From: an archaeon
GTDB lineage: Archaea > Asgardarchaeota > Hermodarchaeia > Hermodarchaeales > Hermodarchaeaceae
Direction: 5' to 3'
Length of the DNA: 44,958 nucleotides
Assembly: GCA_016550485.1 (NCBI GenBank)
Contig: JABXGV010000173.1
Span: 1 to 44,958 of the forward strand
Notes under the pieces: generated by a model
Seen by the model: the letters and a program-made list of their open reading frames with translations, nothing else
Told to the model about the DNA's origin: nothing
The model's database searches: none
In this document: one piece after another, positions 144 to 44,958 of the stretch
How the letters are laid out: each line of letters opens with the position of its first letter
Position numbering within the stretch: position 1 is the first letter of the stretch
Translations under genes and position numbers: made by a program

Positions 144-202
144 CTCTTCTCTTTATCCTTGTGGAAACCTTTTTGAACGGACGATTATTAACCTCCACAC
201 GC

Positions 203-344: not shown

Positions 345-354
345 TTTACCCCTT

Positions 355-471
355 GCGGGGGTTACCGAGCCTGGTCAAAGGTGCAGGGTTTAGGTCCCTG
401 TCGTGTAGGCGTTCATGGGTTCGAAAGCGGTCATCTCTTGATGTTAGCCGAAATTCCCATCCCCCGCACCA
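355..471 (+). tRNA. tRNA-Leu(UAG), class II, with a ~29-nt intron inside the T-loop, CCA encoded
   Basis: Acceptor GCGGGGG (355-361) / CCCCCGC (461-467), then A and CCA. Anticodon arm CAGGG-TTTAGGT-CCCTG (384-400). Long variable arm. T stem ATGGG (415-419) / CCCAT (456-460) encloses 36 nt instead of 7. Removing 426-454 leaves TTCGAAT. The gene starts only 10 nt after tRNA-Glu, so co-transcription is likely. Confidence 0.8.
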
Positions 472-512
472 CTTACATCTTTTGTGTCAGTCAAGAAATT
501 TTGAGGAAAAAA

Positions 513-7281: not shown

Positions 7282-7481
7282 GTTTCGTCACAGCCGACCT
7301 CTATACGAGTAGCGCAAGATGTTGGGGTGTTTTAAGTCTTGTTGACTAATTATTGCCTTTGGTTGTGATTAGCTAGTGCCTATAAAATATTGACTAGTTG
7401 TCGAAAAGCATTTATGGTTGTGATGTGTGCATGGCGTTAATACTGGTGCTGAGCTGGAGTATTTAATTCAGGGGAATCAGG

Positions 7482-8744: not shown

Positions 8745-8764
8745 TGAAAAAGGAGTGAATTACT

Positions 8765-9640
8765 TTGGCGGAAGATATGCCTGTAATTTCAGGAGAATCC
8801 ATGGGTACAATAATAGGGAACCTTCTAGTCGCAATGATTGGTGCGTGCCTTCTAGGCATCATCGTCTTCCTCTCGGGGAACAGGTTCTACGCGGAACCTT
8901 TCTCAGAGGCTGTTGGTGGTTTTTACGCTGCGCTTGCTAATGCTATACTATTTGTTGTTCTTGCAACGGTTGGTGCCTTACTTGTTATTCTTCTGCTTAA
9001 ATATGGGCGTGAAAACCTCCTCCGATATATCCTGATTGGCGCATTCGTGTTCATTGGAATTGTCGTGGTTGCTTATTTTGGATACATGTTTCTCATAGTA
9101 ATGGAGCTTGATGCCCTTCTCGCCATCGTTATTCTTTTTGCCTTCGTTTCTACGGCTAGCCTTGCTTTCATTATGGTCGAGCCAGAAAATCGGATGAAAA
9201 ATGCAGGCCTCCTAATTTTCGGGTCAGGTATTGGCGCATTCTTAGGCGTCGTCTTACCTGTTTGGACCAGTATTCTTCTCCTAATCGCCCTATCCATCTA
9301 TGATTACGTCAGCGTGAAGAGGGGGCCAATAAGGAAAATTGTAGAACTCACAGAAGAAAGCCCTGAGAAACTGGGCGCCCTCGCAGTCTCTACTGCTGAA
9401 TGGGATATCGGTCTTGGAGATGTGGCGTTTTACTGTATGATGACAGTGTTAGCTGTCGTGAACTTCGGGTTCCTGCCAACACTATTTACCGTTATAGGAG
9501 TAGTTGCTGGGTTCCGCATCACAATGCGTTTGCTAGAAAAACGTGGTTTAATGCCCGGCCTCCCAGTTCCTGTAAGTCTAGGTCTTCTGGGACTGCTTAT
9601 AGGCTTCCTCATTCGTCTCTTCTTCCCATTCATCCCTTAA
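8765..9640 (+). CDS. presenilin/signal-peptide-peptidase homologue (A22 intramembrane aspartyl protease, PSH-like)
   Basis: Polytopic membrane protein. Catalytic YD (ALSIYDYVS) and GLGD (DIGLGDVAFY) motifs, plus a PAL-like PGLPVP near the C-terminus. TTG start; an alternative ATG lies at 8777. Confidence 0.75.
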   Translation: MAEDMPVISGESMGTIIGNLLVAMIGACLLGIIVFLSGNRFYAEPFSEAVGGFYAALANAILFVVLATVGALLVILLLKYGRENLLRYILIGAFVFIGIVVVAYFGYMFLIVMELDALLAIVILFAFVSTASLAFIMVEPENRMKNAGLLIFGSGIGAFLGVVLPVWTSILLLIALSIYDYVSVKRGPIRKIVELTEESPEKLGALAVSTAEWDIGLGDVAFYCMMTVLAVVNFGFLPTLFTVIGVVAGFRITMRLLEKRGLMPGLPVPVSLGLLGLLIGFLIRLFFPFIP

Positions 9641-9666
9641 GCGGAAAGCCTCATCATCAGACAGAC

Positions 9667-9870
9667 CTACACATCCACAATAGGGATTTTCAGTCTGCCA
9701 ATTAGCCGCTCAGCGGTTGCTGTGTCACATTTGTAGGTATACAGGTATCGACTAGTTCGTAATTTCAACTTCACCATATCTCGCAACCTCTTTACCCGGC
9801 ACTCTACAGCTCGATCCACTAAAACAAGAAACTCCTCTTCAGATTGAATCTCGCGTGGCATTTTGATCAC
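9667..9870 (-). CDS. rpl38e: ribosomal protein L38e (eL38)
   Basis: 67 aa. The segment KLKLRTSRYLYTYKCDTATAERLIGRL resembles the eukaryotic eL38 core (..RCSRYLYTL...KAEKLKQSL..). The start may be the ATG at 9861. Confidence 0.7.
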   Translation of the reverse strand: MIKMPREIQSEEEFLVLVDRAVECRVKRLRDMVKLKLRTSRYLYTYKCDTATAERLIGRLKIPIVDV

Positions 9871-9954
9871 CGATGTGGCTCGGTTAGAGGAAAAATCGCA
9901 GCTTAAAAGGCTTGTGTTATTAATAATGTCCCGGTTATCGAGATGATTGGGGGG

Positions 9955-10088
9955 TGGTGGGCCGGGCGTGGATTGAACACGCGACCTCCGCCGTATCCTC
10001 GGGTCAAGGATGTCTCTGACACCGGTGAGGGCGGCGTCATACCATTATCCCAGCTCGATTAACCATCGGCTGACTAGACCACCGGCCC
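9955..10088 (-). tRNA. tRNA-Val(CAC) with two introns (D-loop ~29 nt; anticodon loop ~30 nt), CCA encoded
   Basis: In reverse complement: acceptor GGGCCGG/CCGGCCC, then A and CCA. T arm GCGTG-TTCAATC-CACGC. Anticodon stem CCGCC/GGCGG encloses 37 nt. The mature form inferred is GGGCCGG-TG-GTC-TAGTGGTAT-GAC-G-CCGCC-CTCACAC-GGCGG-AGGTC-..., a Val-like body. Introns lie at about 10045-10073 and 9995-10024. A one- or two-nt shift of the second junction would give anticodon CAU instead. Confidence 0.75.
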
Positions 10089-10105
10089 AATCGTGCTTTG
10101 CTGAT

Positions 10106-10267
10106 TTACTTCGTTAACTCGCGCCGCTTTGGTCGAAGGTTCTTGCGGTGGCACCGCCGGCACTTCGTTGCTCTATAGGGGTTCTTGGCTCCGCAATCTC
10201 TACAAATCGTAACGTAAAGTAGATGTGCAAGTGCAATACGGCGTTTTTCTGGATCAGCAACGGGCAT
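10106..10267 (-). CDS. rpl40e: ribosomal protein L40e (eL40)
   Basis: Not in the ORF track because it is only 53 aa. Translation: MPVADPEKRRIALAHLLYVTICRDCGAKNPYRATKCRRCHRKNLRPKRRELTK, with the CxxC...CxxC zinc ribbon of eL40. AGGTGA lies 5 nt upstream of the ATG. Confidence 0.85.
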   Translation of the reverse strand: MPVADPEKRRIALAHLLYVTICRDCGAKNPYRATKCRRCHRKNLRPKRRELTK

Positions 10268-10333
10268 AGGATTCACCTGTTTCGGTTGCGCTTCGCCACC
10301 TTACCTTATAAAAATTCCTAAGATAGGGCAGTA

Positions 10334-11203
10334 TTAGAGTAGAGTCTGTAGTGCCTCGTCTACGTCAATTGGGCGTTCGATAACGGTAACACCTGCTTCT
10401 CGGAGGGCGGCAATCTTGCTATCTGCTGTGCCGCTCTTTCCGCTTACGATTGCGCCTGCATGTCCCATCCGTTTGCCTTTTGGGGCAGTGCGTCCTGCAA
10501 TATAGGCTACGACTGGTTTGGTAGTATGTTCCTGGATGTATTCGGCAGCATTCTCTTCCGCCCGTCCTCCTATCTCACCTATTAGAACTGTAGCATCGGT
10601 CTCTTTGTCTTCTTCAAACAGTTTAAGCGCGTCGATGAAGGACATACCGGTCATAGGGTCGCCGCCTAATCCAATGGCAGTTGATTGGCCAAAACCAGCT
10701 TCACTGAGGCTGGCTGCAACCTCATAAGTGAGCGTGCCGCTTCGAGAAATCAAACCAATCCTGCCAGGTTTGAATACGTGAGCAGGCATGATTCCAAGCT
10801 TACACTTTCCAGGAGAGATGATTCCTGGAGTATTTGGGCCAATAATGTAGCTCCCCTGCTGGCGTGCCAAAGCCACAAATTTCATCTCGTCGTGTAGTGG
10901 GATATGCTCAGTGATTGCTACAATAATTTCGAGTTTTGCATCCAGTGCCTCATTGATAGCATCAGCCGCAAAACGAGCTGGAACAAAGATAATTGACGCA
11001 TTAATGCTTGGGAACTGCTCTTTGGCTTCAATTAGGCCATCGAATACCGGAATCCCTTCTACTTCCTGTCCGCCCTTGCCTGGAGTTGTTCCAGCAAGTA
11101 TCTTGGTTCCGTATTCAATCATCGCGCGTGTATGGAATTGCCCTTCTCTTCCTGTGATTCCTTGGACTACAACTTGAGTTTTATCGTTAATCAAGACAGT
11201 CAT
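10334..11203 (-). CDS. sucD: succinyl-CoA synthetase (ADP-forming) alpha subunit
   Basis: 289 aa. CoA-binding N-terminus ([11 protein letters not shown]) and the phosphohistidine loop ([11 protein letters not shown]). Confidence 0.9.
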
Positions 11204-12360
11204 GTTGGTTTTCCTCCGCTAGTTTTCTCAACTATGAGGCGTGCGGCTGCATCCATCGTTTCTAGGAACGGGATGTTAGCCTTCCGTAATATCTCTGCAC
11301 CTTCCTTCTCTCTCGTCCCTATTAGCCGAATAGCCATGGGGACTTCTTGCCTTAGATTCTTCTGGGACGATACAATCCCATTTGCCATCTCGTCACATCG
11401 TGTGATACCGCCGAGAATGTTGATGAAAACACCTTTCACGTCTGGATGAGAAAGGACAATATCCAGTGCTTGGGTCATACGATCTGCTGTAGCGCCTCCC
11501 CCAACATCAAGAAAGTTAGCTGGTTTTCCGCCATAATAATGAACAGCGTCCATAGTTGCCATCACAAGACCTGCTCCGTTCCCTATAATACCGATGTCCC
11601 CTTTCAATTCTACATAGGTCATACCCACTTCTCGGGCACGTAGCTCGAGCTCTGTTAACTCAGCGACGCCTTTTTCCAATCGTTCCATTAATGATTTATG
11701 ACGAAAGAGGGAGCTATCGTCAACATTGAGTCGAGCATCAGCGGCCATAAATTTTCCGTCTGTAGTTACGATTAGTGGATTAATTTCAGTGAGCTCTGCA
11801 TCATTGTCAGAAAATACGCGCCACAATTGCATTATAATTCTAGATAAATTGAGCAGCTCTCGTCCGTTGAATCCTGCAGCCTTGGCCAATCGACGGGCTT
11901 CGAACTCGCGCATTCCCATAAGGGGATTAATGGTTAGCCGTGCGATTTTTTCCGGGTGCTCCTCAGCGACTTTCTCGATGTCAACGCCTCCCATCCCACT
12001 ACAAATAGCCACGGGTTTACGCTTTTCTCTGTCAACGGTAATTCCAACGTAGATTTCTTTGGCAATATCTAGGCATTCCTCTACGAGGAGACGCTTTACT
12101 CGATGTCCATGTATTTCCATTCCAAGTAGTTTGCCTGCGATTACTCGTGCCTCTTTGGGGGTCTTCGCACGTTTAATGCCGCCTGCTTTACCACGTCCAC
12201 CAGCCAATACTTGCACTTTTAGGATTACTGGGCAAGCCAGCTCTTTTGCTATTTCTTCAGCCTCGTCACTGCTCTGGGCTGTTCGGCCACGTGGAATTGA
12301 GAGTCCAACTTTCCGGAATGCCTCTTTTGCTTCAAATTCAAACTGACGCATTTGCCCCAT
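11200..12360 (-). CDS. sucC: succinyl-CoA synthetase beta subunit
   Basis: 386 aa. ATP-grasp N-terminus followed by the ligase-CoA domain (GNGAGLVMATMD). Overlaps sucD by 4 nt. Confidence 0.9.
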   Translation of the reverse strand: MGQMRQFEFEAKEAFRKVGLSIPRGRTAQSSDEAEEIAKELACPVILKVQVLAGGRGKAGGIKRAKTPKEARVIAGKLLGMEIHGHRVKRLLVEECLDIAKEIYVGITVDREKRKPVAICSGMGGVDIEKVAEEHPEKIARLTINPLMGMREFEARRLAKAAGFNGRELLNLSRIIMQLWRVFSDNDAELTEINPLIVTTDGKFMAADARLNVDDSSLFRHKSLMERLEKGVAELTELELRAREVGMTYVELKGDIGIIGNGAGLVMATMDAVHYYGGKPANFLDVGGGATADRMTQALDIVLSHPDVKGVFINILGGITRCDEMANGIVSSQKNLRQEVPMAIRLIGTREKEGAEILRKANIPFLETMDAAARLIVEKTSGGKPT

Positions 12361-12366
12361 CTCTAA

Positions 12367-12855
12367 TCAGGTAGTTCGAGAGGTCCATGATGTCAGAATG
12401 GTATGGGTTGATGTGGATTCAACTCCCACGATATCTACAACCTTTGACAGGAATTCCGCCAAGTTTGCGCTACTAACTAAAACTACGATGTCAACAGATC
12501 CTGTTACTCGCTGAACCTGAAGTGGTTTAAGTTGCTTTATTTTTTCAAGAACTTCCATGCGGAATTTAGGTTGTACCTTAAGAAAAACAAACGCCTCGTC
12601 TGTGGATTTACCAAGTAACCGTAAGCAATCAGGTGATAAATCGATGAAACCCCGACCTGTTCTGATGAGCTTTAACGAACGAAGCTTCCGGAGATGATTA
12701 CTTAGTGCCTGACGAGTAATGTTTAACTCCTTGGCTAGCTGTGCCTGTGTCCTTATCACAGTCTGAAAAGAAACAGGAATGCTAGCTTGGTACAATTTAC
12801 GTAATATTTCCAGTTGCCGCTCTGTAAGACGTACAACCCTATCAACTAATTCCAT
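12367..12855 (-). CDS. HTH transcriptional regulator (Lrp/AsnC- or ArsR-like wHTH with a C-terminal alpha/beta domain)
   Basis: HTH segment TQAQLAKELNITRQALSNHLRKLRSLKLI. I prefer the ATG at 12853-12855 (MELVDRVV...) over the track start at 12921. Confidence 0.55.
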   Translation of the reverse strand: MELVDRVVRLTERQLEILRKLYQASIPVSFQTVIRTQAQLAKELNITRQALSNHLRKLRSLKLIRTGRGFIDLSPDCLRLLGKSTDEAFVFLKVQPKFRMEVLEKIKQLKPLQVQRVTGSVDIVVLVSSANLAEFLSKVVDIVGVESTSTHTILTSWTSRTT

Positions 12856-33839: not shown

Positions 33840-33967
33840 TTATAATCTTTGATGAAAAGGGATTCAAGAATTTCCACTCCTTAACCACATCTGAAAAATC
33901 AAGAGATCTAATCATAATGCCGACGAAGTTAAAAGCCTAAATTTAATCTTAATAGCTGGGATAAGAC

Positions 33968-36160
33968 TTGGAAGATGAAATTCAACCTAAAGGCAAAACT
34001 GTCACACTCCGAGTGAAGAAGGCGCACGAACGGGATGCAGGACGGTTCATCGTCCGAATCGATACTTCGACAATGGAGTCGCTAGGCGTTCAGACAGGTG
34101 ACATCCTTGGAGTCAAGGGGCGCAAACTAACAGCTGGTATTGTGTGGCCAGCTTATCCTCAGGATGAGGGACAGCGCATTATTCGAATGGATGGTCGTAT
34201 GCGTCGAAACGCAGGGGCTAGCCTAGAAGAAAACGTATCAGCTTATCAGGTTCAGGAACGGTCAGCAGCAGCGATAGTTCTTGCTCCTCTTGAAATGAGG
34301 TTTCCTGCTAAAGATTTCGATGAGTTTGTGAAACAAAAACTCTTGAATTGCCCAGTAACCAAAGATGATACCGTCCATGTATCAATTTTAGGACGACCGG
34401 TCAGGTTCATAGTTCGTCGTCTACGCCCTACTGGTATCGGTCTTGTTGTTCTAAATACTCAGCTTACGATTCTAAGTGAACCGCCCAAAGAATTGGAAGC
34501 AGGTATCCCATACATCACATACGAAGAAATCGGTGGTCTTGGTGACGAAATTCAAAGAATTAGAGAAATGGTAGAACTACCGCTGAAACACCCTGAGCTT
34601 TTTGCGCGGCTTGGTATCACCCCACCAAAAGGTGTTCTTCTACATGGCCCGCCTGGTTGTGGTAAGACCCTGCTTGCACAAGCAGTTGCTAATGAATCTG
34701 AAGCGCATTTCATTTCCATAAATGGTCCCGAAATCATGAGCAAGTTTTACGGGGAATCTGAGAAACGCCTTCGTCAGATTTTCGAAGAAGCAGAAAAGAA
34801 TGCTCCAAGCATTATATTCATCGATGAAATAGACGCTATTGCTCCTAAACGTGAAGAAGTCTTAGGTGAAGTTGAACGTCGAGTTGTTGCACAACTACTC
34901 GCGGTAATGGATGGTCTACAGAAACGTGGCCAAGTCATTGTAATAGGGGCTTCCAATCGGCCTAATGCCATTGATCCAGCGCTTCGTCGTCCTGGCCGTT
35001 TTGATCGGGAAATCGAAATACGTATCCCCGATCGTGATGGTCGACACCAAATTCTCCTCATTCATTCACAAGGAATGCCGTTAGAGTCGGTGAGTCTTGA
35101 AACGATAGCCAACATAACACACGGTTATGTTGGAGCAGACCTTGCTGCCCTTTGTCGCGAAGCAGCTATGCTTGCGTTACGCCGTTACCTGCCTCGTATC
35201 AACCTAGAAGAAGACGAGATTCCTCCCGAAGTACTCGCCGATCTTAGGGTGACAAACGAGGACTTCCTGCACGCTCTAAGAGAGATTCAACCAACAGCAA
35301 TGCGAGAAGTCACTCTTGAAGTTCCCAATGTTCGTTGGACTGATATTGGTGGTCTTGAAGAAATTAAGGAGAAACTTAAACAAGCTGTCGAATGGCCTCT
35401 CAGACATCCTGAATCCTTCACTCGTCTTGGCGTAGAGCCACCTCGTGGTGTTCTCCTTTTTGGACCTCCTGGCTGCGGGAAAACACTTCTTGCTCGAGCA
35501 GTAGCAACTGAAAGCGAAGCGAACTTCATAAGTATCAAAGGACCAGAGGTTTTGTCAAAATGGGTGGGTGAATCAGAAAAGGCTGTAAGGGAAGTCTTCA
35601 GGCGTGCTAGGCACGCAGCTCCTGCGATCATATTCTTTGATGAAGTTGACGCTCTAGCACCCGCTCGTGGTAGTGGTGTGGGAGATTCGCATGTAACCGA
35701 GCGTGTAATTAGTCAAATCCTAACCGAAATTGATGGCATTCAATCCCTAAAGGATGTCGTTGTGTTAGCTGCTACTAATCGTCCTGACCTTCTCGATTCA
35801 GCATTACTCAGACCGGGGCGCTTCGATCGACACATCTTGGTTCATGCACCAGATGCAGACGCACGCCAAAAAATCTTTGAAATTTACATCAAGGGTATGC
35901 CTCTCGCAAAGGATGTAAAAATCGACGAATTAGTTCAAGCCACTGACCGCTTCGCGGGTAGTGATATTCAAGCATGTTGTAGAGAAGCTGCCCTTGCCGC
36001 GCTTGATGAGGATATGGCGACAGAAAAAGTCCATCGTAGACATTTCATGAAAGCGATTAAAGAGGTAAACCCCACAATCACCGCAGAGATGGAGAAAGCC
36101 TACCTAGCCTGGGGTAAAAGAGCTCGTCAAACACGACCCAGTACTACTCCATTTGTATAA
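33968..36160 (+). CDS. cdc48: CDC48/VCP-like AAA+ ATPase (double-psi barrel N domain plus D1 and D2)
   Basis: 730 aa. Two Walker A motifs (GPPGCGKT, twice), two Walker B motifs ([16 protein letters not shown]) and second regions of homology (SRH). TTG start. Confidence 0.9.
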
Positions 36161-36178
36161 CCGAAGCATCGAGGAATA

Positions 36179-36430
36179 TCAGTCTTCTGCAATGGTGAGA
36201 TATCGACGACTAGTAACCCGCTCTATCTTGCGCTTTGATTTTGTGATTTGCTGAACATGGACAAGCCCGCTTATCTCCAATTCCATTAGGGTACGGTTCA
36301 ACTCTGCAGGAGTAGTGTTCTCTCTAATAGTCTTTAGCAATCTGACTAGTTCTTTGTCTATCAATACACCTTGCCGCTTATCAAGAAGGGCTAGGATGAC
36401 ATTTCGAAGCGGAATAGTTCTCCACGACAT
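36179..36430 (-). CDS. small winged-helix-like protein, function unknown
   Basis: 83 aa. Helical/wH-like pattern (VILALLDKRQGVLIDKELVRLL...LMELEISGLVHVQQ). No family recognised. Confidence 0.3.
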   Translation of the reverse strand: MSWRTIPLRNVILALLDKRQGVLIDKELVRLLKTIRENTTPAELNRTLMELEISGLVHVQQITKSKRKIERVTSRRYLTIAED

Positions 36431-36607
36431 GAAATCACCTTAAATGCTGTTCGTCCGTAGGTTTAGCTGAAATCGGTTCTCCTTTCTAGTAAAAGGAATA
36501 CGACGTCATCGCAGGAGAGATGCTTTTAATCTTTCCTTCATTGTCATCTTAATATAGGTAGTTTTAAGTCTATTATCGAAATTCACTATTTTAAATCAAT
36601 GAGGTAG

Positions 36608-36937
36608 ATGGTGGCTTTGTCAGGAACTTCCTTTGTCAGAGAGGCTGCAGTCTTCAAAGAAATAGGTGCCATAACAGGAGAGGATGTAGGTCGCCGCGTT
36701 CGCATAATGGGATTCGTAGTTGATGTCCACAATGAATTGATTGTACTTAGTGATGACACTGGTCGAATTATGGTATCAGTAGAGGCTCCTCCAAAGCTCC
36801 AAGCCTTTGTACGCGTTTTTGGCACTGTTGCTCTTTCAGGTGAGGGACAACCATTAATTCGTGCAGATTTTGTCCAAGACATTGCGGCTCTTGATAAGCA
36901 ATTATATAAACGTGCTATACGATTATTCAAAACCTGA
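36608..36937 (+). CDS. single-OB-fold protein, RPA14(RPA3)-like small subunit candidate
   Basis: 109 aa. OB pattern GRRVRIMGFVVDVHNELIVLSDDTGRIMVSVEAPPKLQAFVRVFGTV, followed by a C-terminal helix. Lies immediately upstream of PCNA. Confidence 0.35.
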   Translation: MVALSGTSFVREAAVFKEIGAITGEDVGRRVRIMGFVVDVHNELIVLSDDTGRIMVSVEAPPKLQAFVRVFGTVALSGEGQPLIRADFVQDIAALDKQLYKRAIRLFKT

Positions 36938-36958
36938 CTACTTCGGAGGATTGACTAA

Positions 36959-37714
36959 ATGTTTACTGCCAAGTTTGAAGATGCAAAAACATGGCAAGCT
37001 CTCATCAGCGCTATTTCCGCTCTAGTTGACGAAGCTAATTTTGAAATTTCGCCTAAGGGACTTACCTTACGTGCCATGGATCCATCGAGAATAGCGATGG
37101 TTGACTTCGAGCTCCCCAAGGGCGCCTTTAGTGAGTATAAATGTGATGAGGAAACTAAAATCGGCGTAAACCTAGACGAGATAGAAAAAATCGTCAAGCG
37201 TGCTGCTTCTGGTAACAGCTTGGAGCTAAGTGTAGATCATGAATCAAACAAATTAGTAATTACACTCTTAGGACGCACACGCCGCAGCTTCAGTGTAGCA
37301 TTAATCGAATTGGGTGGTGAACGGCCACCAACACTTACAGTGGAGTTTGGCGTGTCTGTAAAAATAACAGCTGATACACTTAAGGAGATAATTCAAGACG
37401 CTGATATTATTAGCGATTTTGTAGCGTTAAACGCGACTGAAAGTGCCTTAGTGATTTCTGCACGTGGGGATACAGGCAATCTTGAAGTGCGGCTCAGCAA
37501 AGAAGATGAAGCACTTCTAGAATACAAGGTCAAGCAACCATCCAAGTCTCTTTATGCTCTGGAGTATCTGAGTGATATGATGAAAGCAGTGGCTGCATCT
37601 GACACAGTCCAAGTCGAATTTGGTGAAGGAACACCAATCAAACTGGTTTTCACAGTAACCAACGGTGGTCATATAATCTATTATCTTGCACCGCGAGTAG
37701 AAGACGAATTCTAA
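36959..37714 (+). CDS. pcn: DNA polymerase sliding clamp PCNA
   Basis: 251 aa. Starts MFTAKFEDAKTWQALISAISALVDEANFEISPKGLTLRAMDPSRIAMVDFELP and shows the two-domain repeat pattern. Confidence 0.9.
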   Translation: MFTAKFEDAKTWQALISAISALVDEANFEISPKGLTLRAMDPSRIAMVDFELPKGAFSEYKCDEETKIGVNLDEIEKIVKRAASGNSLELSVDHESNKLVITLLGRTRRSFSVALIELGGERPPTLTVEFGVSVKITADTLKEIIQDADIISDFVALNATESALVISARGDTGNLEVRLSKEDEALLEYKVKQPSKSLYALEYLSDMMKAVAASDTVQVEFGEGTPIKLVFTVTNGGHIIYYLAPRVEDEF

Positions 37715-37724
37715 GGCAGGACAA

Positions 37725-38768
37725 ATGCTCGAGGATACTAAAATCTATGAGGCTGCGAAATATCCGTGGTCGATTTCTGCACGGCGTCTGTTGAAGGAGC
37801 TAGACATATCTCTTAAAGAGATTGATGCAGATGCACAAGCGCTTCAGCTGGCTCGTAGCCGCCTGCTTCAAGCCCTTGAAACAAAGGAATCTGCGAGTCC
37901 AGAACGTAAAACAAGTAGCGAGTTCGTAGAATTAACTAGCTTCTTTGTTGCGAAGGTGATGGTTGACGCAATTAAAAGCATGTTTTTCCGCCGGCGTTGG
38001 GCTACCGCAGAAGCTAAGCGTGCTGAGCGCTATTTCTTCAAAGAATCAGATTTAAAGCTTGCACAATTAGCTACGCGCAACTTCAACTGGCAGCTAGACC
38101 CAAAACCCACGCGAATTGCTGGACGTGAATTCTCTCACAGGCTTCACTTTGCAAATTATCTTGCCGCTACAGCAGGTTTTCATGAGCGAGAATGGAAGCT
38201 AGTAAACAAACGTATGGTCAGTGGCTATGTCCTTCTCAGGAAGGGAGATACTGCACGAGTGTTGCGGGCAGCTGTGGAACAGCTGCTAATCAGTGATGTA
38301 AAACAAGTTACACCACCTTTCCCTCCTAACATTCAACAATTTTATGAAGAGTTAGAAGTGATTGTTCGCGGTCGTACAGAACGTATGAAGCAGGAAATAA
38401 TGGGTGAGATAATCCCAGAAGCATTCCCGCCCTGCATTCAAGCCCTTCTAGGTGATATGGCTGAGGGTAAACCGCTTTCGCATATCGCGCGATTTACAAT
38501 AACATCTTTTCTTTTAAATGTCGGGATGGATGTCGATTCAATTCTAAACCTTTTCGTAAAGGCTCCTGACTTCCGTGAAGATCTTGCGCGGTATCAGATT
38601 GAACACATTGCTGGCAAGCGAGGGAGCACCGAATATACTCCACCTGCATGTGCCTATTTGGTATCCACTCGGCTTTGTGTGAAGAAGGATAAATACTGCG
38701 AGTTCATACGGCACCCTCTTGCATATTATCGGAGGAGGAGAAAGTGGATAAAACCGAAGAGTTCCTGA
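37725..38768 (+). CDS. priL: DNA primase large subunit PriL
   Basis: 347 aa. C-terminal Fe-S domain cysteines (FPPCIQ...; PPACAYL...LCVKKDKYCEF). Confidence 0.8.
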   Translation: MLEDTKIYEAAKYPWSISARRLLKELDISLKEIDADAQALQLARSRLLQALETKESASPERKTSSEFVELTSFFVAKVMVDAIKSMFFRRRWATAEAKRAERYFFKESDLKLAQLATRNFNWQLDPKPTRIAGREFSHRLHFANYLAATAGFHEREWKLVNKRMVSGYVLLRKGDTARVLRAAVEQLLISDVKQVTPPFPPNIQQFYEELEVIVRGRTERMKQEIMGEIIPEAFPPCIQALLGDMAEGKPLSHIARFTITSFLLNVGMDVDSILNLFVKAPDFREDLARYQIEHIAGKRGSTEYTPPACAYLVSTRLCVKKDKYCEFIRHPLAYYRRRRKWIKPKSS

Positions 38769-39976
38769 AGAATCAATTTGCGGCGTACTACCAGCGGAAG
38801 CACGAAGGCCTTACTATGCCACCAGACTACGAAAAACGCGAGTTCGCCTTTTTCTGGTTCACTCGAAGAGGGGCTCTCCGTCATACCAGCTTCACAAAGA
38901 AGGAAGAGTTAATTCAATTCATAGCGAATGAAGGACCAGCCCATATCTTCTATTCTGCCGCAAAATACAGGAAGCCAGACGCACCTCAGATGCCTCTTAA
39001 AGAATGGGAAGGTGCAAATCTAATCTTTGATATCGATGCTGACCACCTAATTCTCCCCTGTCAGAAACTTCACGACCGGTGGCTTTGTACAGAATGTAGT
39101 ACTCGTGGTAAAGGTCAACGACCAGAAGCTTGTCCAAATTGTGGGGCTCATGCATTTCAGGAATTGAAGTGGATGTGTAAGGAATGTCTTGACGCAGCAA
39201 AAAGCGAAGCAATAAAGATTATTGAAGAATTTCTCCTACCCGATTTTGGCATCGTCCACAAAGACATTATGATAGTCTTTTCCGGTCATCGTGGATATCA
39301 CGTTCACTGTTTCACAGAGGAAGTTCAGCCATTAGGTTCAGCTGAGCGACGTGAAATCGTTGACTATGTGTCTGGTGTTGGACTAGATTTCCTGCATCAT
39401 GGTCTTGTAGATCAATCATACGGGATACCAAAAGGGCCAGATACTCGAACACCCGGGTGGGAACAAAAAATAGCCCGGGGTATAAAGGCAATCTTCAAAT
39501 CCCCCTCAAAAATCTCAGAGATAACTCAATTAAAGGCGTCTCAGAAAGAGATTTTAACTCGAGACGCTGCTTCGATTTTAAGGCAGCTGGAGGAGAGTCC
39601 TCCTCGCTACGTTATGCCTAAAGGAATCGGTAAGGTAGCATGGCGTGCAATCGCCCAGTTTGCTGTTGAGCAGATGGGTGCTAAAGTAGACGAGCCAGTT
39701 ACAACTGATATTCACCGTCTCATTCGCCTTCCAGGCTCGCTACATGGTAAAACCGGCTTCCTTGTGAAACAATTAGATATGAACTCGCTAGAGAAATTTG
39801 ACCCATTTAGCGACGCCCAGGTTTTCGAAGGCTCTACAGAAGTCTTTGTGAAAGAATCGCCAGGATTCAGCTTGGGAAACACTGAATATCCGCCTATGAG
39901 AGAATGCGAGTGTGAGCTTCCTCTCTCTGTCGCTATCTTGCTATTAGGCAAGGGTGTGGCTATAATTAATGAATAA
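38744..39976 (+). CDS. priS: DNA primase catalytic (small) subunit PriS
   Basis: 410 aa. Catalytic LIFDIDADH and SGHRGYHVH motifs, with an inserted zinc-knuckle region (CTECS...CPNCG...CKEC). GTG start preceded by GGAGGAGGAG. Overlaps priL by 25 nt. Confidence 0.9.
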   Translation: MDKTEEFLKNQFAAYYQRKHEGLTMPPDYEKREFAFFWFTRRGALRHTSFTKKEELIQFIANEGPAHIFYSAAKYRKPDAPQMPLKEWEGANLIFDIDADHLILPCQKLHDRWLCTECSTRGKGQRPEACPNCGAHAFQELKWMCKECLDAAKSEAIKIIEEFLLPDFGIVHKDIMIVFSGHRGYHVHCFTEEVQPLGSAERREIVDYVSGVGLDFLHHGLVDQSYGIPKGPDTRTPGWEQKIARGIKAIFKSPSKISEITQLKASQKEILTRDAASILRQLEESPPRYVMPKGIGKVAWRAIAQFAVEQMGAKVDEPVTTDIHRLIRLPGSLHGKTGFLVKQLDMNSLEKFDPFSDAQVFEGSTEVFVKESPGFSLGNTEYPPMRECECELPLSVAILLLGKGVAIINE

Positions 39977-39989
39977 GGAGGCGTGTGCG

Positions 39990-40556
39990 ATGTATGAATC
40001 GTTATTTGAATATTGGAAACAGGAACGGGCGTCAGACAAACTACTCCCTCTACGTGAAACCTTTATGCAAAGGCTAAGAACCTACATAGAGCAACTAATA
40101 ACCGAGACGCAATCAGAGGATATATCGGATACCCACCGTCTCCTTCTTGAGGCCGAGTTATCCAACTTGCGCTTCATTTTGAAGAGTCTTTTACAACATC
40201 GCGTAAAGAAGATTCTAGCAATGGTGCTAGCATCAGATACAATAGACCATAGTCTTATGACAAGGCAAGAACAGCGGTTCGTTGAACAAATAACGAGAAG
40301 TCTACGCTCTGTTAGGATGCTGGAGGAAGACTTATTCGCACCAATGGAGGCTGATTCGTCGTCAAGCCTAATCTTGGTCCGGTTCCTTGAAGATTATCCA
40401 CAAATCGCTGGAGTAGATTTAAAAACATATGGACCGTTTAGGGCTGATGACTTGGCGGTGCTCCCCCTTGAAAATGCTCGTGGGATCATAAGAAGAAATG
40501 GGGCGGAGCCAGTCGTTATTGGAGCTGAAAGAAGTGAAAGCGCCCAAGGAAGTTAA
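39990..40556 (+). CDS. GINS subunit (Gins51/Gins15 type)
   Basis: Helical A domain, then the B domain (LILVRFLEDYPQIAGVDLKTYGPFRADDLAVLPLENARGII). I prefer ATG 39990 with AAGGAGG upstream. Conserved PriS-GINS linkage. Confidence 0.7.
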   Translation: MYESLFEYWKQERASDKLLPLRETFMQRLRTYIEQLITETQSEDISDTHRLLLEAELSNLRFILKSLLQHRVKKILAMVLASDTIDHSLMTRQEQRFVEQITRSLRSVRMLEEDLFAPMEADSSSSLILVRFLEDYPQIAGVDLKTYGPFRADDLAVLPLENARGIIRRNGAEPVVIGAERSESAQGS

Positions 40557-40812
40557 GACATATTGCGCACGGTGTAGGATGCATACAGAGCACTCGCTCT
40601 CACTGTATAAAAAAGGTCGAGAGCGCCGCCTATCTGCTGGAGCTCGACGATATCGCAGGAAAAAAGCAGGCTATGGCTCGCAGCCCAAAGCGGTTCAGAA
40701 ACGTTTCGCAAAAGCTGGTACAAAGAAGTACGTGATTAGGTACAAGTGTAAGACGTGTGGTCACACTACTGTACGTAAAGGCAATAGACTGAAGAAGATA
40801 GAGTTTGTCTAG
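40534..40812 (+). CDS. rpl44e: ribosomal protein L44e (eL42)
   Basis: (M)KAPKEVKTYCARCRMHTEH...KCKTCGH zinc ribbon. I prefer GTG 40534 over ATG 40498, because it gives the canonical N-terminus and has GGAG 9 nt upstream. Confidence 0.85.
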   Translation: MKAPKEVKTYCARCRMHTEHSLSLYKKGRERRLSAGARRYRRKKAGYGSQPKAVQKRFAKAGTKKYVIRYKCKTCGHTTVRKGNRLKKIEFV

Positions 40813-40825
40813 TAAGGTGAGTGAT

Positions 40826-41023
40826 ATGCCAAGAAAAGACCTAATACCTGAACCAACATCGCGGTTTTTGATAGTGAAGTGTCCTGAATGTGGAAATGAT
40901 AAGCAGATAGTCTTTGGTTGGGCAACGCTGGTTGTTAACTGTGATGTCTGTGGTAAACCCCTACTAGAGCCAACTGGGGGTAAAGCTCGAATACTCGGCG
41001 AAATAGTAACAGAGTTAGAATGA
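40826..41023 (+). CDS. rps27e: ribosomal protein S27e (eS27)
   Basis: MPRKDLIPEPTSRFLIVKCPECGNDKQIVFG....CDVCGKPL. AGGTGA lies upstream of ATG 40826. Confidence 0.9.
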   Translation: MPRKDLIPEPTSRFLIVKCPECGNDKQIVFGWATLVVNCDVCGKPLLEPTGGKARILGEIVTELE

Positions 41024-41066
41024 GCCATAGCGTAATCTGTTAGGTTCCGCTCTAGGTGTCGTGTAA

Positions 41067-41876
41067 ATGTCAGAAAAACAAGAAGGCCCTCATGCTGGAG
41101 ATTCAGATTTACCAAGTGTTGGCGAACTAGTAATTGCAACAGTGACACGTATCACTTCACATGGTGCCTATGCCAGCCTTGACGAACATGATGGTCGTGA
41201 AGCATTCGTTCACATTTCTGAAATTGCCTCCACGTGGGTTCGAAACATTCGGAACTTCGTTAGAGAATCTCAGAAAATAGTTGGGAAGGTTCTCCGTGTC
41301 GATTTACGGAGAGGACAAGTCGACCTGTCTCTTCGACGTGTAACGAAGGAGCATTCCCGTATGAAGATTCAAGAGTGGAAACGTGCCCAGCGAGGGAAGC
41401 GGCTACTTGAATTGGCAGCAGAGAAACTAAAAACCTCATACGAAGAAGCCTTTGAAGCAGCAGGAAAGCTCATGGAATCGAATTATAGTGACATGCTTGA
41501 AGCACTAGAAGAGGCTAAGGAGAAGGGCGTCAAAGTTCTCCGAGATATTGGTGTACCTAAAAAATGGGCAGACGTACTTTATGAACTTGCTTTGATTCAT
41601 GTTATTGTTAGGGAAGTCAGCCTTGAGGCAACGATAAAATTAACATGCTCGAGCGCAGAAGGGATTGAAGGTGTTAGAAAGGCCCTTCTGGCTGCTCAGG
41701 CAATCGTTGCTCCATCAAAGGGTGAAGTCTTCGTCGATGGAGCTCCACGATATCGAATTCGACTAAAGGCAAAGGGTGCCAAGGACGCGGAAAGTATTCT
41801 CGACCGTGCCGTTGAGGAAAGCCTTAGAGTTATCAAAGAGTGCGGCGGAGAGGGCAGCGTCGTAGCCCGCTCCTAA
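41067..41876 (+). CDS. eif2a: translation initiation factor aIF2 alpha
   Basis: 269 aa. S1 domain (GELVIATVTRITSHGAYASLDEHDGREAFVHISEI), then a helical domain and an alpha-beta domain. Confidence 0.9.
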   Translation: MSEKQEGPHAGDSDLPSVGELVIATVTRITSHGAYASLDEHDGREAFVHISEIASTWVRNIRNFVRESQKIVGKVLRVDLRRGQVDLSLRRVTKEHSRMKIQEWKRAQRGKRLLELAAEKLKTSYEEAFEAAGKLMESNYSDMLEALEEAKEKGVKVLRDIGVPKKWADVLYELALIHVIVREVSLEATIKLTCSSAEGIEGVRKALLAAQAIVAPSKGEVFVDGAPRYRIRLKAKGAKDAESILDRAVEESLRVIKECGGEGSVVARS

Positions 41877-41885
41877 ATTAATGAG

Positions 41886-42089
41886 GTGTTGGCATTACCC
41901 CGACAACTTAAGAAGTGCTCTCGCTGTTCCCACTACACAATGCATTCTACTACATGCCCACATTGTGGTGGGTCAGTAGTGTTTGCTCATCCTCCCCGCT
42001 TCTCCATAGACGATCGCTACGGGAAGTACCGCCGAGTAATGAAGAAAGGGCTGCTGTCGGAACAAGAGAGTGACGACGATTCTGCGTAA
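41886..42089 (+). CDS. nop10: H/ACA RNP protein Nop10
   Basis: LKKCSRCSHYT...CPHCGGSVVFAHPPRFSIDDRYGKYRR, followed by an acidic tail. GTG or TTG start. Confidence 0.85.
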   Translation: MLALPRQLKKCSRCSHYTMHSTTCPHCGGSVVFAHPPRFSIDDRYGKYRRVMKKGLLSEQESDDDSA

Positions 42090-44958
42090 GCCATTCGAGA
42101 TGAATGGTCGTAATAGATTTCTATTCCGTTCAATGGGTTGTCGTGAACCGAGGAAATAGAGGGCTGGTGCGGCGTGGGAGTCACCTGTACGGTCAAGTTG
42201 AGGGTAACGTTCTGTCCCATATACTCAGGAACTAGGGACATATAGAACAATTCAACCTCCACAGTTCCTCCGGCCGTCAGCGTCTCACCCGCCTCAGCTG
42301 CGTCTAGGTTAAATTCAATCTGTTCACCAGTAAACAGTACAAGCCCGCGCTCAGAATCATCCGAGATGTACAAATCATTTCCTTCTATACGACCAACCCG
42401 ATCGATTTCACAGTAACCTTCACCAGTATTTTCTAACACGATGTGGATTGAACCGTTATCAAAGGCATAGCACTCTGAGAGGATGGCTGTCAGGTTATAG
42501 CTGGGGGCAAGGCGGACAGGTATCCGTGCCGTTGCATTCAGCTGGGGATGGAATCCCTCAGTTTTCACCGTAGCCTCAATAGTCGAACCAACTGGGAACT
42601 CGAGCTGAACCCGAGTGCTAAGAATCACCGACTCACCAGCCTTAACCTCAAACTCTCCAGATGAAGTGGTTAACCCATAGATGGTTACCGGCTCAACCCG
42701 CCACTCCTCAGCCTCATCGTCGTAGTAGCGGATATCAACACTCGAAATCGTGAAGGAGTGAAGTCCAGGGTTTGCCACCTCCATGACTACCGAGGAGAGC
42801 GGATCAGTAGGCGAAGGCCCACCGTGAATTGGATAAGCGCTAGCTCCTTTAATTGCTATTTCAGAATCAAGCCTAGTATAATCAACCTTGAAAATCTTCA
42901 TCAACTGATACTGCGACTGATAAGCCATGGGGAACGCGTCAAAGATCGAAAGCGCCGGGTCAACCGTTGGGTCGACCACACCACCTCCCAGGTCATTGTA
43001 GTTACCCTCGCCTAGGTTTGACGCATTAACGTAGAGCATATTGTAGAGCAGTGAATCGTAAAATCGCTGATGGGATGTGCCTCCTAGTGGGTCCCAGAAC
43101 TCGTTCTCGTGTGGCACCTCGTCGCCAAAGACCTCATAGGCGATTCGGACCATCCACTGCCATTTCCCTTCATCACCGCCATAACCTTGGGCGCCATAGC
43201 CAAAATGGACGAAGACATAGTCAATGTCAAAGCGGCGACAAATACGCAGCGCCTCAATCGGATCATCCTCCATGAGCATACGGCCAATCCAGGCAATCTG
43301 CGTCTTATTCACCGTCGCGTTATCCACAACCGTCGTACGGTTACCCATCACACGCGTCCAATACCCATAATCCCACCACGATGCAAAGACCGCATCTGGC
43401 GCCGTATGCGTGCGCATCCAACCAAAAGCCTCTAGATAATCTCTACTCTGAAATTGAATCTCACCAGTATCTGGAAATCTGTACCCCGGCACCATCTCGG
43501 GACCACCCATAGTGTTGGCGCCATCGATGGCAAAAAACACAGTCCCCATCAGCAGTAACAACACCAGCATGTACGTAACCGTAGCAAAGCTACGCGACGT
43601 TGGAGCCGTAATACGGCGCCGACGACGAGTGAGAATGGGGCGCTGCCAATACACCGTACGGAAGGGCGTCAACACACCAACCAAGCCATACGCGCCAACC
43701 AGCGCAGCAGCAGGGGCAAGCAACAAGGCAAGACGAATCATGGACCCAGTAAAGTAGATCCCAGTAAGCGTAAACACAATAATAAGCAAATCCACCTCCC
43801 GCTCCCTCCGGAAAGCAATGTACAGCCCAAAGGGAATCAGCAGCATCAGAAAACTAAGGTTATACCAGAAAGACGCCCACGGCGACGGCAAATGCTCCCC
43901 CACCGACGCCAGCAAATACGCCGTCTGACGAATAAACGGATCAAGCACCGTCGAAAACTTCCCCGCCAGCCCCGAAAACAGATTCACCTCCGGCGCCGCA
44001 AGAAGCTGCACAATCAACCCCGACTGGAAGAGAAACGCCAACCCCGCAACAACAATGCCACACATACCGCCAAACACGTACGCCGCATACGGCCGCAACC
44101 GAGCCGAAAACCCAACCACCGAACGAGGCATCCCCCGCTCACTCAGCCGCACCGCCCCCGCCACCTCCATCAACACCATCAACCCAAACACGCCAATGGG
44201 AATCAACCCCATCGTCGAATGCACAAAATCCGGCCCAATCCGCGGCACCAACACCGCAATAAACAACCCACCAAAAATCGTCCCCGAATACGCCACCAGC
44301 AGCCGCCGACTATACCGACGCAGCAAAATCAAGAGCAGCGCAAACAACGCCAACAACTCAAACACGTAAATATAACTGCTCCAACTCGCCGCCAAATACC
44401 CCAACGACAACCCCCCAAGAATCGCCGACGCCACACTCCCCTTCCGCAACGCCCGACAAAAGAAGAACAACACCAAAATAATCGCAAAAATCCCAATCGC
44501 CTCATTATCATAAAACCCCACAATCGTCCGCTGCGTATACGACGGCACAATCGCCAAGAAAAACGCACAAAACAACCCCACCTCCGTCGTCGCCACCTCC
44601 CGCCCCAAGAAAAACGCCGCCACCACCCCAAACGTCCCCATCAACGCCGGAAACAACACACACAACAACATCAAATCAATCCGCACACCAAAAAACTGCA
44701 ACACCAAATACAAAAACGCCGTCGTAAACGGCACCCCCGGATAACTCGACGTCGCAATCTCCCGACCAAACGGAAACCACGACGTCTCATCATACCAATT
44801 AAACCACGCCCCAAACCCATACTCCAAAATAAACTCCGTCTCACGATAGTTGTACCAAGGATCAAACGCCCTTAGGAGAGTCTCGAACCCCAACCCTGGG
44901 AGGATGCGGATGAGGAGGGCGATGACGGTGATGGAGATGAGGGCGAGGGTGGCGATGA
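42017..44958 (-). CDS. aglB: oligosaccharyltransferase AglB, eukaryotic STT3-like; 5' end runs off the window
   Basis: FDPWYNYR...NWYDETSWFPFGR in the first loop, the WWDYGYW catalytic motif, and VDNATVNKTQIAWIGRM after it. The frame stays open upstream of the track start (TTG 44893) to the window edge and encodes a TM helix (IATLALISITVIALLIRILPG). The ~330-aa C-terminal region is beta-rich. Confidence 0.85.
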   Translation of the reverse strand, partial: IATLALISITVIALLIRILPGLGFETLLRAFDPWYNYRETEFILEYGFGAWFNWYDETSWFPFGREIATSSYPGVPFTTAFLYLVLQFFGVRIDLMLLCVLFPALMGTFGVVAAFFLGREVATTEVGLFCAFFLAIVPSYTQRTIVGFYDNEAIGIFAIILVLFFFCRALRKGSVASAILGGLSLGYLAASWSSYIYVFELLALFALLLILLRRYSRRLLVAYSGTIFGGLFIAVLVPRIGPDFVHSTMGLIPIGVFGLMVLMEVAGAVRLSERGMPRSVVGFSARLRPYAAYVFGGMCGIVVAGLAFLFQSGLIVQLLAAPEVNLFSGLAGKFSTVLDPFIRQTAYLLASVGEHLPSPWASFWYNLSFLMLLIPFGLYIAFRREREVDLLIIVFTLTGIYFTGSMIRLALLLAPAAALVGAYGLVGVLTPFRTVYWQRPILTRRRRRITAPTSRSFATVTYMLVLLLLMGTVFFAIDGANTMGGPEMVPGYRFPDTGEIQFQSRDYLEAFGWMRTHTAPDAVFASWWDYGYWTRVMGNRTTVVDNATVNKTQIAWIGRMLMEDDPIEALRICRRFDIDYVFVHFGYGAQGYGGDEGKWQWMVRIAYEVFGDEVPHENEFWDPLGGTSHQRFYDSLLYNMLYVNASNLGEGNYNDLGGGVVDPTVDPALSIFDAFPMAYQSQYQLMKIFKVDYTRLDSEIAIKGASAYPIHGGPSPTDPLSSVVMEVANPGLHSFTISSVDIRYYDDEAEEWRVEPVTIYGLTTSSGEFEVKAGESVILSTRVQLEFPVGSTIEATVKTEGFHPQLNATARIPVRLAPSYNLTAILSECYAFDNGSIHIVLENTGEGYCEIDRVGRIEGNDLYISDDSERGLVLFTGEQIEFNLDAAEAGETLTAGGTVEVELFYMSLVPEYMGQNVTLNLTVQVTPTPHQPSISSVHDNPLNGIEIYYDHSSRMAYAESSSLSCSDSSPFFITRRYFP

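Follow-up and report, generated by a model that had tools for sequence, protein, structure and literature searches.

A strand-composition domain that switches sign within aglB in Hermodarchaeota

The 5' half of aglB, at the right end of a 44,958-nucleotide stretch of Hermodarchaeaceae DNA (contig JABXGV010000173.1 of assembly GCA_016550485.1, hereafter the window), is written in two successive codon alphabets: a run of codons ending only in C is followed, after a short mixed zone, by hundreds of codons that end almost exclusively in G or T. An earlier note on this DNA, made from the sequence alone, had drawn attention to this pattern and had taken it for an intragenic property of aglB. What process could write a housekeeping gene in this way, and is the gene the unit on which it acts? 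We found that the aglB pattern is the right arm of a two-armed strand-composition domain of ~7 kb, which extends past the window edge and is conserved in several Hermodarchaeota genomes. We infer that its cause may be a substitution pressure working outward from a fixed point inside the gene.

Codon regimes in aglB

By similarity and motifs, the gene is predicted to encode a member of the STT3/AglB oligosaccharyltransferases. Its translation contains the motifs FDPWYNYRE and WWDYGYW, which correspond to the acidic DxD-type motif of the first external loop and to the WWDYG catalytic motif. The gene falls in the Pfam family STT3 (PF02516) and has 255 homologues at E<=1e-3, the top ones carrying PF02516/PF21436 and the name dolichyl-diphosphooligosaccharide-protein glycosyltransferase; its relatives are Asgard proteins. 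TTG at 44893, from which the earlier note had counted codons, is not the start: the open frame continues as far as the window edge, and the relatives start ~30 codons further upstream, which places the true start about 30 codons beyond 44958.

The gene was read on the minus strand in the aglB frame, starting at the window edge (Table 1). The counts reported in the earlier note (19 C-ending codons, 79 G/T-ending codons, the base counts of three 60-nt lines and a 327-aa antisense open reading frame, ORF) were reproduced exactly. The unbroken run of 79 codons lies at 44848-44612, is terminated by TTC at 44611-44609, and is followed by G/T runs of 16, 30, 27, 44, 37 and 52 codons that reach 43871. 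Codons ending in A occur at 44899 and 44875 and next at 43603, with 423 A-free codons between. The 169 fourfold degenerate sites of the core (codons 36-360) hold A0 C6 G146 T17, and its twofold sites C8 T62 for pyrimidines and A0 G53 for purines; the sense-strand composition of the core is G 0.40, T 0.36, C 0.14 and A 0.10. For comparison, 44 ORFs elsewhere in the window have third-position frequencies of A 0.30, C 0.21, G 0.19 and T 0.30. In the decay zone (codons 360-560) the fourfold sites are A5 C19 G50 T38, and ordinary codon usage resumes by about 43100-43300, as read from a third-position table per 30 codons and from the skew profile.

Table 1. Features of the aglB locus in the window
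Feature	Coordinates	Strand	Remarks
aglB/STT3 oligosaccharyltransferase (predicted)	42017..44958	-	979 codons + stop; 5' end cut by window edge
Left-arm remnant, last 57 nt of A/C-rich arm	44900..44956	-	19/19 codons C-ending; transmembrane helix 1
Transition zone	44849..44899	-	PGLGFETLLRAFDPWYN, 17 mixed codons; switch at 44897/44898; encodes conserved DxD-type catalytic loop
Right (G/T-rich) arm, core	43871..44848	-	~326 codons, almost exclusively G/T-ending
Right arm, decay zone	43100..43870	-	C-ending codons back first, A-ending later
Allelic or recombination junction	44858..44935		14 differences vs the near-identical contig L029, all synonymous
Shadow ORF, 327 aa	43892..44875	+	antisense to aglB; not a gene

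Chance is excluded as the source of this pattern: the probabilities are ~3e-25 for the run of 79, ~4e-67 for 423 codons without A and ~1e-13 for 19 C-ending codons. In a sliding scan of 8,879 79-codon windows, the share of codons ending in G or T averages 0.493, with a standard deviation (sd) of 0.068 and a maximum of 0.684, and no other ORF of the window comes near the aglB values. The pattern is strand-specific, with (G+T-A-C)/N on the + strand falling to -0.57 in 300-nt windows (sd 0.074 in the window core). Hydrophobicity, which the earlier note had discounted, is indeed no explanation, because in the two other membrane-protein ORFs the fraction of codons ending in G or T is 0.50 and 0.53. 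The longest G/T run outside aglB, 20 codons, belongs to a membrane-protein ORF at 20887-22161 (-) with a local skew of -0.23 at 21900-22200, which we judged to be ordinary variation.

The 327-aa shadow ORF is a by-product of the bias, as the earlier note had supposed. It is open because aglB there lacks TTA, TCA and CTA codons, and H1 (a relative introduced below) also has an antisense ORF of equal length. As a gene it was rejected, its identity among relatives being 0.62-0.75 vs 0.87-0.89 for the sense frame. Runs of three or more G are about 3.5-fold enriched in the G/T arm (28.5 per kb vs 8.3 per kb elsewhere); no canonical four-run G-quadruplex motif was found in that arm.

A two-armed domain conserved in Hermodarchaeota

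We compared the window with two relatives, each with ~87% aglB amino-acid identity: H1 (locus L003, Candidatus Hermodarchaeota SRR22302347_concoct_51) and H2 (YT1_014, represented by loci L013 and L004, with a 127-nt overlap). A third contig, L029 (GCA_016550505.1, JACGUL010000063.1), is nearly identical to the window. Thorarchaeota aglB orthologues are 57-60% identical and have GCV_H upstream; the order aglB-eIF2alpha-L44e (S27e/L44e)-GINS-primase-PCNA-CDC48 is common to the window and the Thorarchaeota loci.

The earlier note had asked whether the bias is kept beyond 44,958. In the longer contigs of the relatives its sign is reversed upstream, where the same strand is A/C-rich. The switch lies at the codon boundary ILP|GLG, window 44897, at the minimum of the cumulative (G+T)-(A+C) curve; H2 has this minimum at the identical codon boundary (L013 12623), and in H1 it lies 20 nt further upstream (L003 1957). 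Since the left arm stops at the switch, the 19 C-ending codons of the window are its end. In L003 the aglB strand keeps a skew of -0.5 to -0.6 between the contig end and 1750; the sign flips at ~1900-1980, and the skew is +0.5 from 2000 to 2900 and reaches ~0 by 3800. In YT1_014 the A/C arm runs from ~7200 to 12620 (5.4 kb), with less than 10% G+T at fourfold sites. The right, G/T-rich arm is 1-1.8 kb long in the longer contigs. The strength of the skew declines with distance from the switch on both sides, in aglB and in the HerA-like gene of the left arm. The polarity resembles that of a replication origin, in that either strand, followed 5'->3' outward from the switch, is rich in G and T. 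The G+C content of the arms is 0.5-0.59 vs 0.39-0.45 in the flanks. A search for a large inverted repeat or palindrome between the arms gave only short, composition-driven matches, RNA structure between the C-rich and G-rich 5' parts of aglB was unremarkable (z = -0.54 in the window, +0.47 in L003), and a search of the arms for known RNA families, introns and retron-like RNAs among them, returned one tRNA only.

The orthologue comparison proposed in the earlier note revealed the same regimes at the same codons in both Hermodarchaeota relatives. At the fourfold sites of codons 36-360, H1 has A0 C3 G71 T93 and H2 A6 C13 G62 T93; the two Thorarchaeota orthologues, with A37 C88 G24 T37 and A54 C35 G16 T69, are unbiased. 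Codons orthologous to the 19 C-ending ones have fourfold counts of A6 C6 G2 T0 in H1 and A9 C5 G0 T0 in H2. The bias is thus specific to lineage and locus; at other Asgard loci the skew has an sd of 0.06 and a maximum of |0.19|. Fourfold identity among the three Hermodarchaeota outside the domain is 0.41-0.54, so synonymous sites there are largely randomised, and the shared bias must therefore be actively maintained. Two candidate observations were set aside: an intragenic regime switch in L001, a 60%-identical orthologue, is ordinary for a genome rich in C at third positions, and the high nucleotide identity to the right of the switch, which might have marked a conserved target site, is explained by the reduced alphabet. 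In a further genome, YT_063, aglB was not recovered in the assembly.

Within this common pattern the window differs from its relatives. Of the 71 fourfold differences between the window and H1 in the core, 65 are G in the window and T in H1, and the purine:pyrimidine ratio at core fourfold sites is 86:14 in the window and 43:57 in H1 and H2. The H1 and H2 counts are compatible with transitions alone; the window lineage, with its 86:14 ratio and its all-C transmembrane helix 1, needs an additional GC-raising pressure, T->G, on the depleted strand, for which GC-biased conversion is one possibility. A state of C>>A is also found in part of the left arm of H2.

The pressure acts on nucleotides and not only on codon choice. 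At codon positions 1+2 of the G/T core, A is reduced (98-101 vs 134-137) and T raised (242-244 vs 192-209). Leu is encoded by TTG in 33 of the 47 core codons and by CTC or CTA in >90% of cases within the A/C arms. Except for a conserved TATA-like TTTTTAAG, A+C makes up ~70% of the 90-nt spacer that separates aglB from the upstream gene. The fraction of F, L, V, G, W and C in AglB is 0.47-0.48 versus 0.39-0.40, and that of T, P, N, K, Q and H in the biased LAGLIDADG-fold proteins is 0.42-0.43 versus 0.23-0.26 in unbiased homologues. Since first and second positions, Leu first positions, the spacer and amino-acid content shift together, translational selection cannot be the cause.

The switch also coincides with a junction. 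L029 and the window are identical over 38048-44857 (0 differences in 6,810 nt) and then differ at 14 positions within 85 nt; the differences include TCC vs AGC for Ser, and sites that are C throughout in the window carry A or C in L029. It follows that the two arms have separate histories, and alleles of the left arm are exchanged at the point where the G/T regime starts or no more than ~10 nt from it. The contigs of L029 and the window end within 16 nt of each other, and this exchange of alleles also explains why assemblies break at the switch. Contig ends at biased domains were seen at 44958 of the window, in L029, at the start of L004, the end of L013, the start of L003 and the end of L014, and in P0001; these repeated breaks of short-read assemblies suggest strain-level heterogeneity in the biased domains.

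The left arm contains two co-oriented genes. One encodes a HerA-like P-loop ATPase of 1010 aa (Pfam DUF87; PADLOC HerA and mad8), the other a 793-aa protein with a helix-turn-helix (HTH) domain and two LAGLIDADG-like motifs (..SDGHI and ..IPEDG); the latter gene stops ~220 nt short of the switch. When the 793-aa protein was compared with Pfam, PDB sequences and PADLOC, a weak HTH match was the only result. An AlphaFold2 (AF2) model built on a 35-sequence alignment had a pLDDT (predicted local distance difference test) of 85.1, a model from 4 sequences having been discarded at 50.6, and its C-terminal ~290 residues match I-Tsp061I (Foldseek E 6.6e-6, template-modelling score, TM, 0.61), I-DmoI, PI-SceI and WhiA. 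The catalytic acidic positions are conserved in 35/35 sequences (D509 in 35/35; at position 607, 27 have D and 8 have E). As modelled, the protein combines the two LAGLIDADG motifs with the alpha-beta-beta-alpha-beta-beta-alpha double-domain fold; WhiA shows that this fold can be non-catalytic. The multi-copy nature of the family, its absence at the Thorarchaeota locus and the junction at the switch are indirect hints of homing by this candidate endonuclease.

The HerA-like/LAGLIDADG module is also present, unbiased, in other Asgard lineages and was not found on viral contigs. The LAGLIDADG family is multi-copy in Hermodarchaeota metagenome-assembled genomes (MAGs), with at least 5 paralogues in one of them. 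Most of these copies bear A/C patches, some of them sharp-edged within the gene, and one copy has the opposite sign. Thus L019 has a sharply bounded 1-kb A/C block in the 5' half of its LAGLIDADG gene (1500-2550) and a small G/T patch downstream (3600-3900), L015 has a patch at 200-2400, and L020, the copy of opposite sign, has 70-80% G/T-ending codons in the part encoding the N terminus of the paralogue (1-600). Recent gene conversion between paralogues was considered as a source of the A/C patches and rejected, as no block of raised identity was seen. In YT1_014 an unbiased defence island (L013 1797-5185, G+C 0.39), encoding a Cas4-like PD-(D/E)XK nuclease and a class II prokaryotic Argonaute (pAgo), lies between a tRNA gene (1206-1288) and the module.

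Candidate causes of the strand bias

The reading that we favour, at a probability of about 0.5, is that a local strand-asymmetric substitution pressure, anchored at a fixed point, strips A and C from the strand whose 5'->3' direction leads outward from the switch. Polymerases would start at the switch and run outward both ways, and the outward strand would either be newly made with G.T-type misincorporation or be displaced, single-stranded and deaminated (C->U, A->hypoxanthine); it could be a nascent strand primed at the switch, a displaced strand, or the non-template strand of outward transcription. To the right of the switch the outward strand is the coding strand of aglB, which would acquire G/T-ending codons, TTG for Leu and more F, L, V, G, W and C. 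To the left it is the template strand of the HerA-like and HTH-LAGLIDADG genes, which would hence acquire A/C-ending codons, CTC or CTA for Leu and proteins rich in T, P, N, K, Q and H. Purifying selection would preserve protein function, so that the pressure would show mainly at synonymous sites, and it would fade over 1-2 kb rightward and ~5 kb leftward, with the separate GC-raising pressure (T->G, same strand) acting in the lineage of the window. The earlier note had pointed to deamination: the direction agrees, C and A being lost from the coding strand, but the G>>T excess of the window (146:17) is not explained by deamination alone.

Two engines could drive such a pressure. One, which we hold tentatively, is recurrent nick- or break-primed synthesis of the strand-displacement, synthesis-dependent strand annealing (SDSA) or break-induced replication (BIR) type, started by the LAGLIDADG-fold endonuclease with the HerA-like ATPase; it draws support from the LAGLIDADG-fold gene 220 nt away, from the position of the switch within conserved coding sequence for the catalytic loop, and from the junction. 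The other, somewhat more doubtful, is that a strong bidirectional promoter sits at the switch and drives divergent transcription with R-loops; it is supported by the canonical sign of the aglB arm, its decay from a 5' peak, its enrichment in G3+ runs, and A/C gradients near 16S rRNA and tRNA-Asn genes. An excess of G+T on the coding strand is seen in aglB after about codon 36; the HerA-like and LAGLIDADG genes and the first ~60 codons of aglB are A/C-rich. Both engines could be placed in a wider proposal, likewise doubtful, that Hermodarchaeota possess a cis-acting, site-anchored, strand-specific hypermutation resembling somatic hypermutation or targeted mutagenesis by a nickase-polymerase. 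The HerA-like ATPase and LAGLIDADG-fold nuclease, or a bidirectional promoter, would repeatedly start outward strand-displacing synthesis, and over evolution several kb, an essential gene included, would be turned into a two-letter alphabet at their free positions.

A number of observations weigh against a pressure of this kind. No polymerase start, nick, break or promoter is directly evidenced at the switch, and the TATA-like elements of the transition zone, read directly in the sequence, are not conserved in the window. The purity of the bias (0 A at 169 fourfold sites, with G and T freely exchanged between lineages) exceeds known replication and transcription asymmetries, vertebrate mitochondrial DNA (mtDNA) included, and neither the G>>T state of the window nor the C>>A state of part of the left arm can come from deamination. 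The simplest break model, damage to a resected 3' tail, predicts the opposite polarity. Both upstream genes are transcribed towards the switch and have an A/C-rich coding strand, a non-canonical sign; divergent transcription therefore needs a dominant antisense transcript. Finally, LAGLIDADG paralogues bear sharp A/C patches in their own 5' halves, one of them of opposite sign, the tRNA promoter in L013 has no patch, and the same module is unbiased in other Asgard lineages.

Part of this evidence speaks for selection on base composition, which we consider unlikely but which, given the purity of the bias, is a serious rival. The strand would be kept free of A and C because a two-letter strand is advantageous: possible benefits are that it offers no palindromic restriction sites, that its RNA is unfoldable and safe from sequence-specific RNases, and that it tunes R-loops; the 5' half of aglB would belong to a selected, frequently exchanged unit. 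The extreme purity in the face of free G/T interchange (the 65 of 71 differences given above) fits well with this, as do the retention of the bias in paralogues diverged to 33-50% identity, the place of the left arm in a defence island with a pAgo and a Cas4-like nuclease, and the junction, at which the left arm is exchanged between strains. Selection does not readily account for the gradual fading of the bias with distance in aglB and the HerA-like gene, for a change of sign inside a housekeeping gene where the protein has no functional boundary, or for the unbiased state of the same module in other lineages. Nor does amino-acid content set the sign, the hydrophobic first transmembrane helix being A/C-ending and one paralogue opposite, and the dragging along of protein composition is likely to be costly.

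A replication origin at the switch, chromosomal or of an integrated element, with the arms as an exaggerated leading-strand G/T skew, is improbable. A skew switch is reportedly found at origins of bacteria and archaea (Lobry 1996), and codon usage in Borrelia is reported to be strand-specific (McInerney 1998). The domain shares with these the A/C to G/T polarity along either strand and the strand dependence of codon usage; a cluster with GINS, PriS, PriL and PCNA lies 3-8 kb away, and a HerA-like ATPase and a DNA-binding HTH protein adjoin the switch. However, known origin skews are genome-wide, ~10x weaker and centred on intergenic sequence with ORB (origin recognition box) or DnaA boxes, whereas this skew is confined to a few kb, is extreme, and switches within coding sequence and not in an intergenic A/T-rich element. 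Repeated ORB-like elements and inverted repeats were not found around the switch, orc1/cdc6 was not seen within 10 kb, and the syntenic Thorarchaeota loci have no skew.

We give very little weight to a break at the switch followed by classical 5'->3' resection, with deamination of the 3' tails. HerA is the archaeal resection motor, and the neighbours of the switch include an endonuclease-fold gene and the gene of a HerA-like ATPase. At human meiotic hotspots, C>N and A>N mutagenesis extends over +-2 kb with a BIR tail of >10 kb, C and A are lost on the 3'-tailed strand, and C>G and A>G are ascribed to translesion polymerases (Hinch et al. 2023, PMC7615360). The loss of C and A, the kilobase scale and the mirror arms around a point are common to both systems, and here an endonuclease-fold gene stands beside the centre. 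In chemistry and scale the hotspots are also a precedent for the outward pressure favoured above. The polarity, however, is reversed with respect to the main resection polarity: the depleted strand has its 5' end at the break, and this is the strand that resection removes. In addition, the human signal is a faint excess of rare variants, whereas the composition here is saturated, and the break at this locus is hypothetical.

Equally little weight falls on a horizontal mosaic, in which a donor with another codon usage supplied either the 5' half of aglB or all 7 kb of the domain. The earlier note had listed a mosaic gene among its alternatives, and in part rightly, as there is an allelic junction at 44858-44935, and the G+C content of the arms is above that of the flanks; but the G/T regime lies on the conserved side of the junction and is common to diverged lineages. 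We know of no genome in which codons end only in G or T, or only in A or C, and the two arms have opposite signs on one strand. The gradual fading, and the sharing of the bias across lineages with saturated synonymous divergence, point to active maintenance. An assembly chimera or a sequencing artefact at the contig end, finally, might be suspected from the breaks in or near the domain of the window, L029, L004/L013, P0001 (an 86%-identical JGI contig) and L003, but its probability is negligible: four independent assemblies show the same structure, L003 and L013 come from different assemblers and span the switch, the reading frame and STT3 motifs are intact, and the changes fall only at synonymous or tolerated positions.

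Known systems and milder gradients nearby

Besides origin skews and human meiotic hotspots, the domain bears comparison with three kinds of known system. In vertebrate mtDNA the heavy (H) and light (L) strands are reportedly asymmetric, with a gradient set by the time spent single-stranded (Reyes 1998; Faith & Pollock 2003). There, as here, C and A disappear from one strand (C->T, A->G), which is left G/T-rich, amino-acid content follows, fourfold sites approach a reduced alphabet, and the strength varies with position from a start point. Unlike mtDNA, a whole small replicon of one polarity, the present domain is a 7-kb chromosomal island with a flip of sign, its depletion is stronger (A and C each <=4%, vs G 3-5% and T 15-20% in mtDNA), and strand-displacement replication would have to be supposed for it.

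Transcription-associated asymmetries at the 5' ends of genes, R-loop-prone promoters with GC skew, and somatic hypermutation form a second group (as reported by Green 2003, Polak & Arndt 2008 and Ginno 2012). In these the non-template strand is rich in G and T, and in G itself, with a peak in the first 1-2 kb followed by a decay, a profile that the aglB arm matches. Mirror arms result where promoters are divergent, and A->G changes arise from Pol eta-type T.dGTP errors. The present locus differs in that the upstream genes are anti-canonical, the first ~190 nt of the aglB transcript are A/C-rich and the magnitude is far greater. Free-standing homing endonucleases, such as the seg and mob genes of phage T4, co-convert flanking markers. 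The locus resembles theirs in having a LAGLIDADG-fold gene of a multi-copy family next to a conserved essential gene, flanking effects on a kilobase scale and an allelic junction in conserved, target-like sequence; it differs in that, in the manner of defence systems, the candidate endonuclease carries a fused HTH domain and has a HerA-like ATPase for a partner. We know of no compositional strand bias at free-standing homing endonuclease loci.

A counterpart of such a two-armed strand-composition domain was not found in the searchable literature. Local strand asymmetries usually amount to a faint statistical signal; in this case 7 kb of a cellular chromosome have come close to saturation, and the sign flips within an essential gene. 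This implies either a locus-specific mutation bias above the mitochondrial level or an unrecognised value of two-letter strands, and in either case a process strong enough to alter the amino-acid make-up of three proteins. The locus belongs to the Asgard archaea, the closest relatives of eukaryotes, stands beside an uncharacterised HerA-like/LAGLIDADG pair in a defence island, and offers a concrete case in which to study mutagenesis induced by breaks or transcription, R-loops and homing-type elements in these organisms. On the practical side, biased domains seem to break short-read assemblies and produce long false ORFs.

Milder gradients accompany RNA genes in the same genomes. In H1 and H2, beyond the sequence corresponding to the left end of the window, a 1-kb A/C-rich gradient on the rRNA-sense strand, with a skew reaching -0.4, ends at the start of the 16S rRNA (CTGGTTGATCCTGCCAG; L033 1650-2770 and L032 9300-10690). 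Within it lie the rRNA leader and the 3' part of a methyltransferase gene, in which the share of A/C-ending codons climbs from 0.5 to 0.93; in YT1_014 the methyltransferase gene is separated from the 16S gene by two inserted genes. In the window, the + strand is G/T-rich at 500-1400, up to +0.31, beside the tRNA-Asn gene. A KH-domain gene lying there (638-1228, -) has 71% A/C-ending codons with a run of 22, and the patch is conserved in YT_063, YT1_014 and concoct_51, the coding-strand skew of the gene being -0.2 to -0.3 in the relatives. The gradients at 16S (two relatives) and at tRNA-Asn (four genomes) are compatible with outward upstream-antisense transcription.

On the other side of the window, a cluster of replication and translation genes (CDC48, PCNA, PriL, PriS, GINS, L44e and eIF2alpha; 33965-41876) adjoins aglB. 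At the left end, ARAGORN reported only tRNA-Ala (69-143) and tRNA-Asn (513-589); between them we noted two tRNA-like genes with long insertions, at 201-344 (+) and ~353-475 (+), the first reading GCGCCCCGATAGTGTAGTGG...GGTTCGAATCCCGGTCGGGGCACCA. Their insertions are probably archaeal introns.

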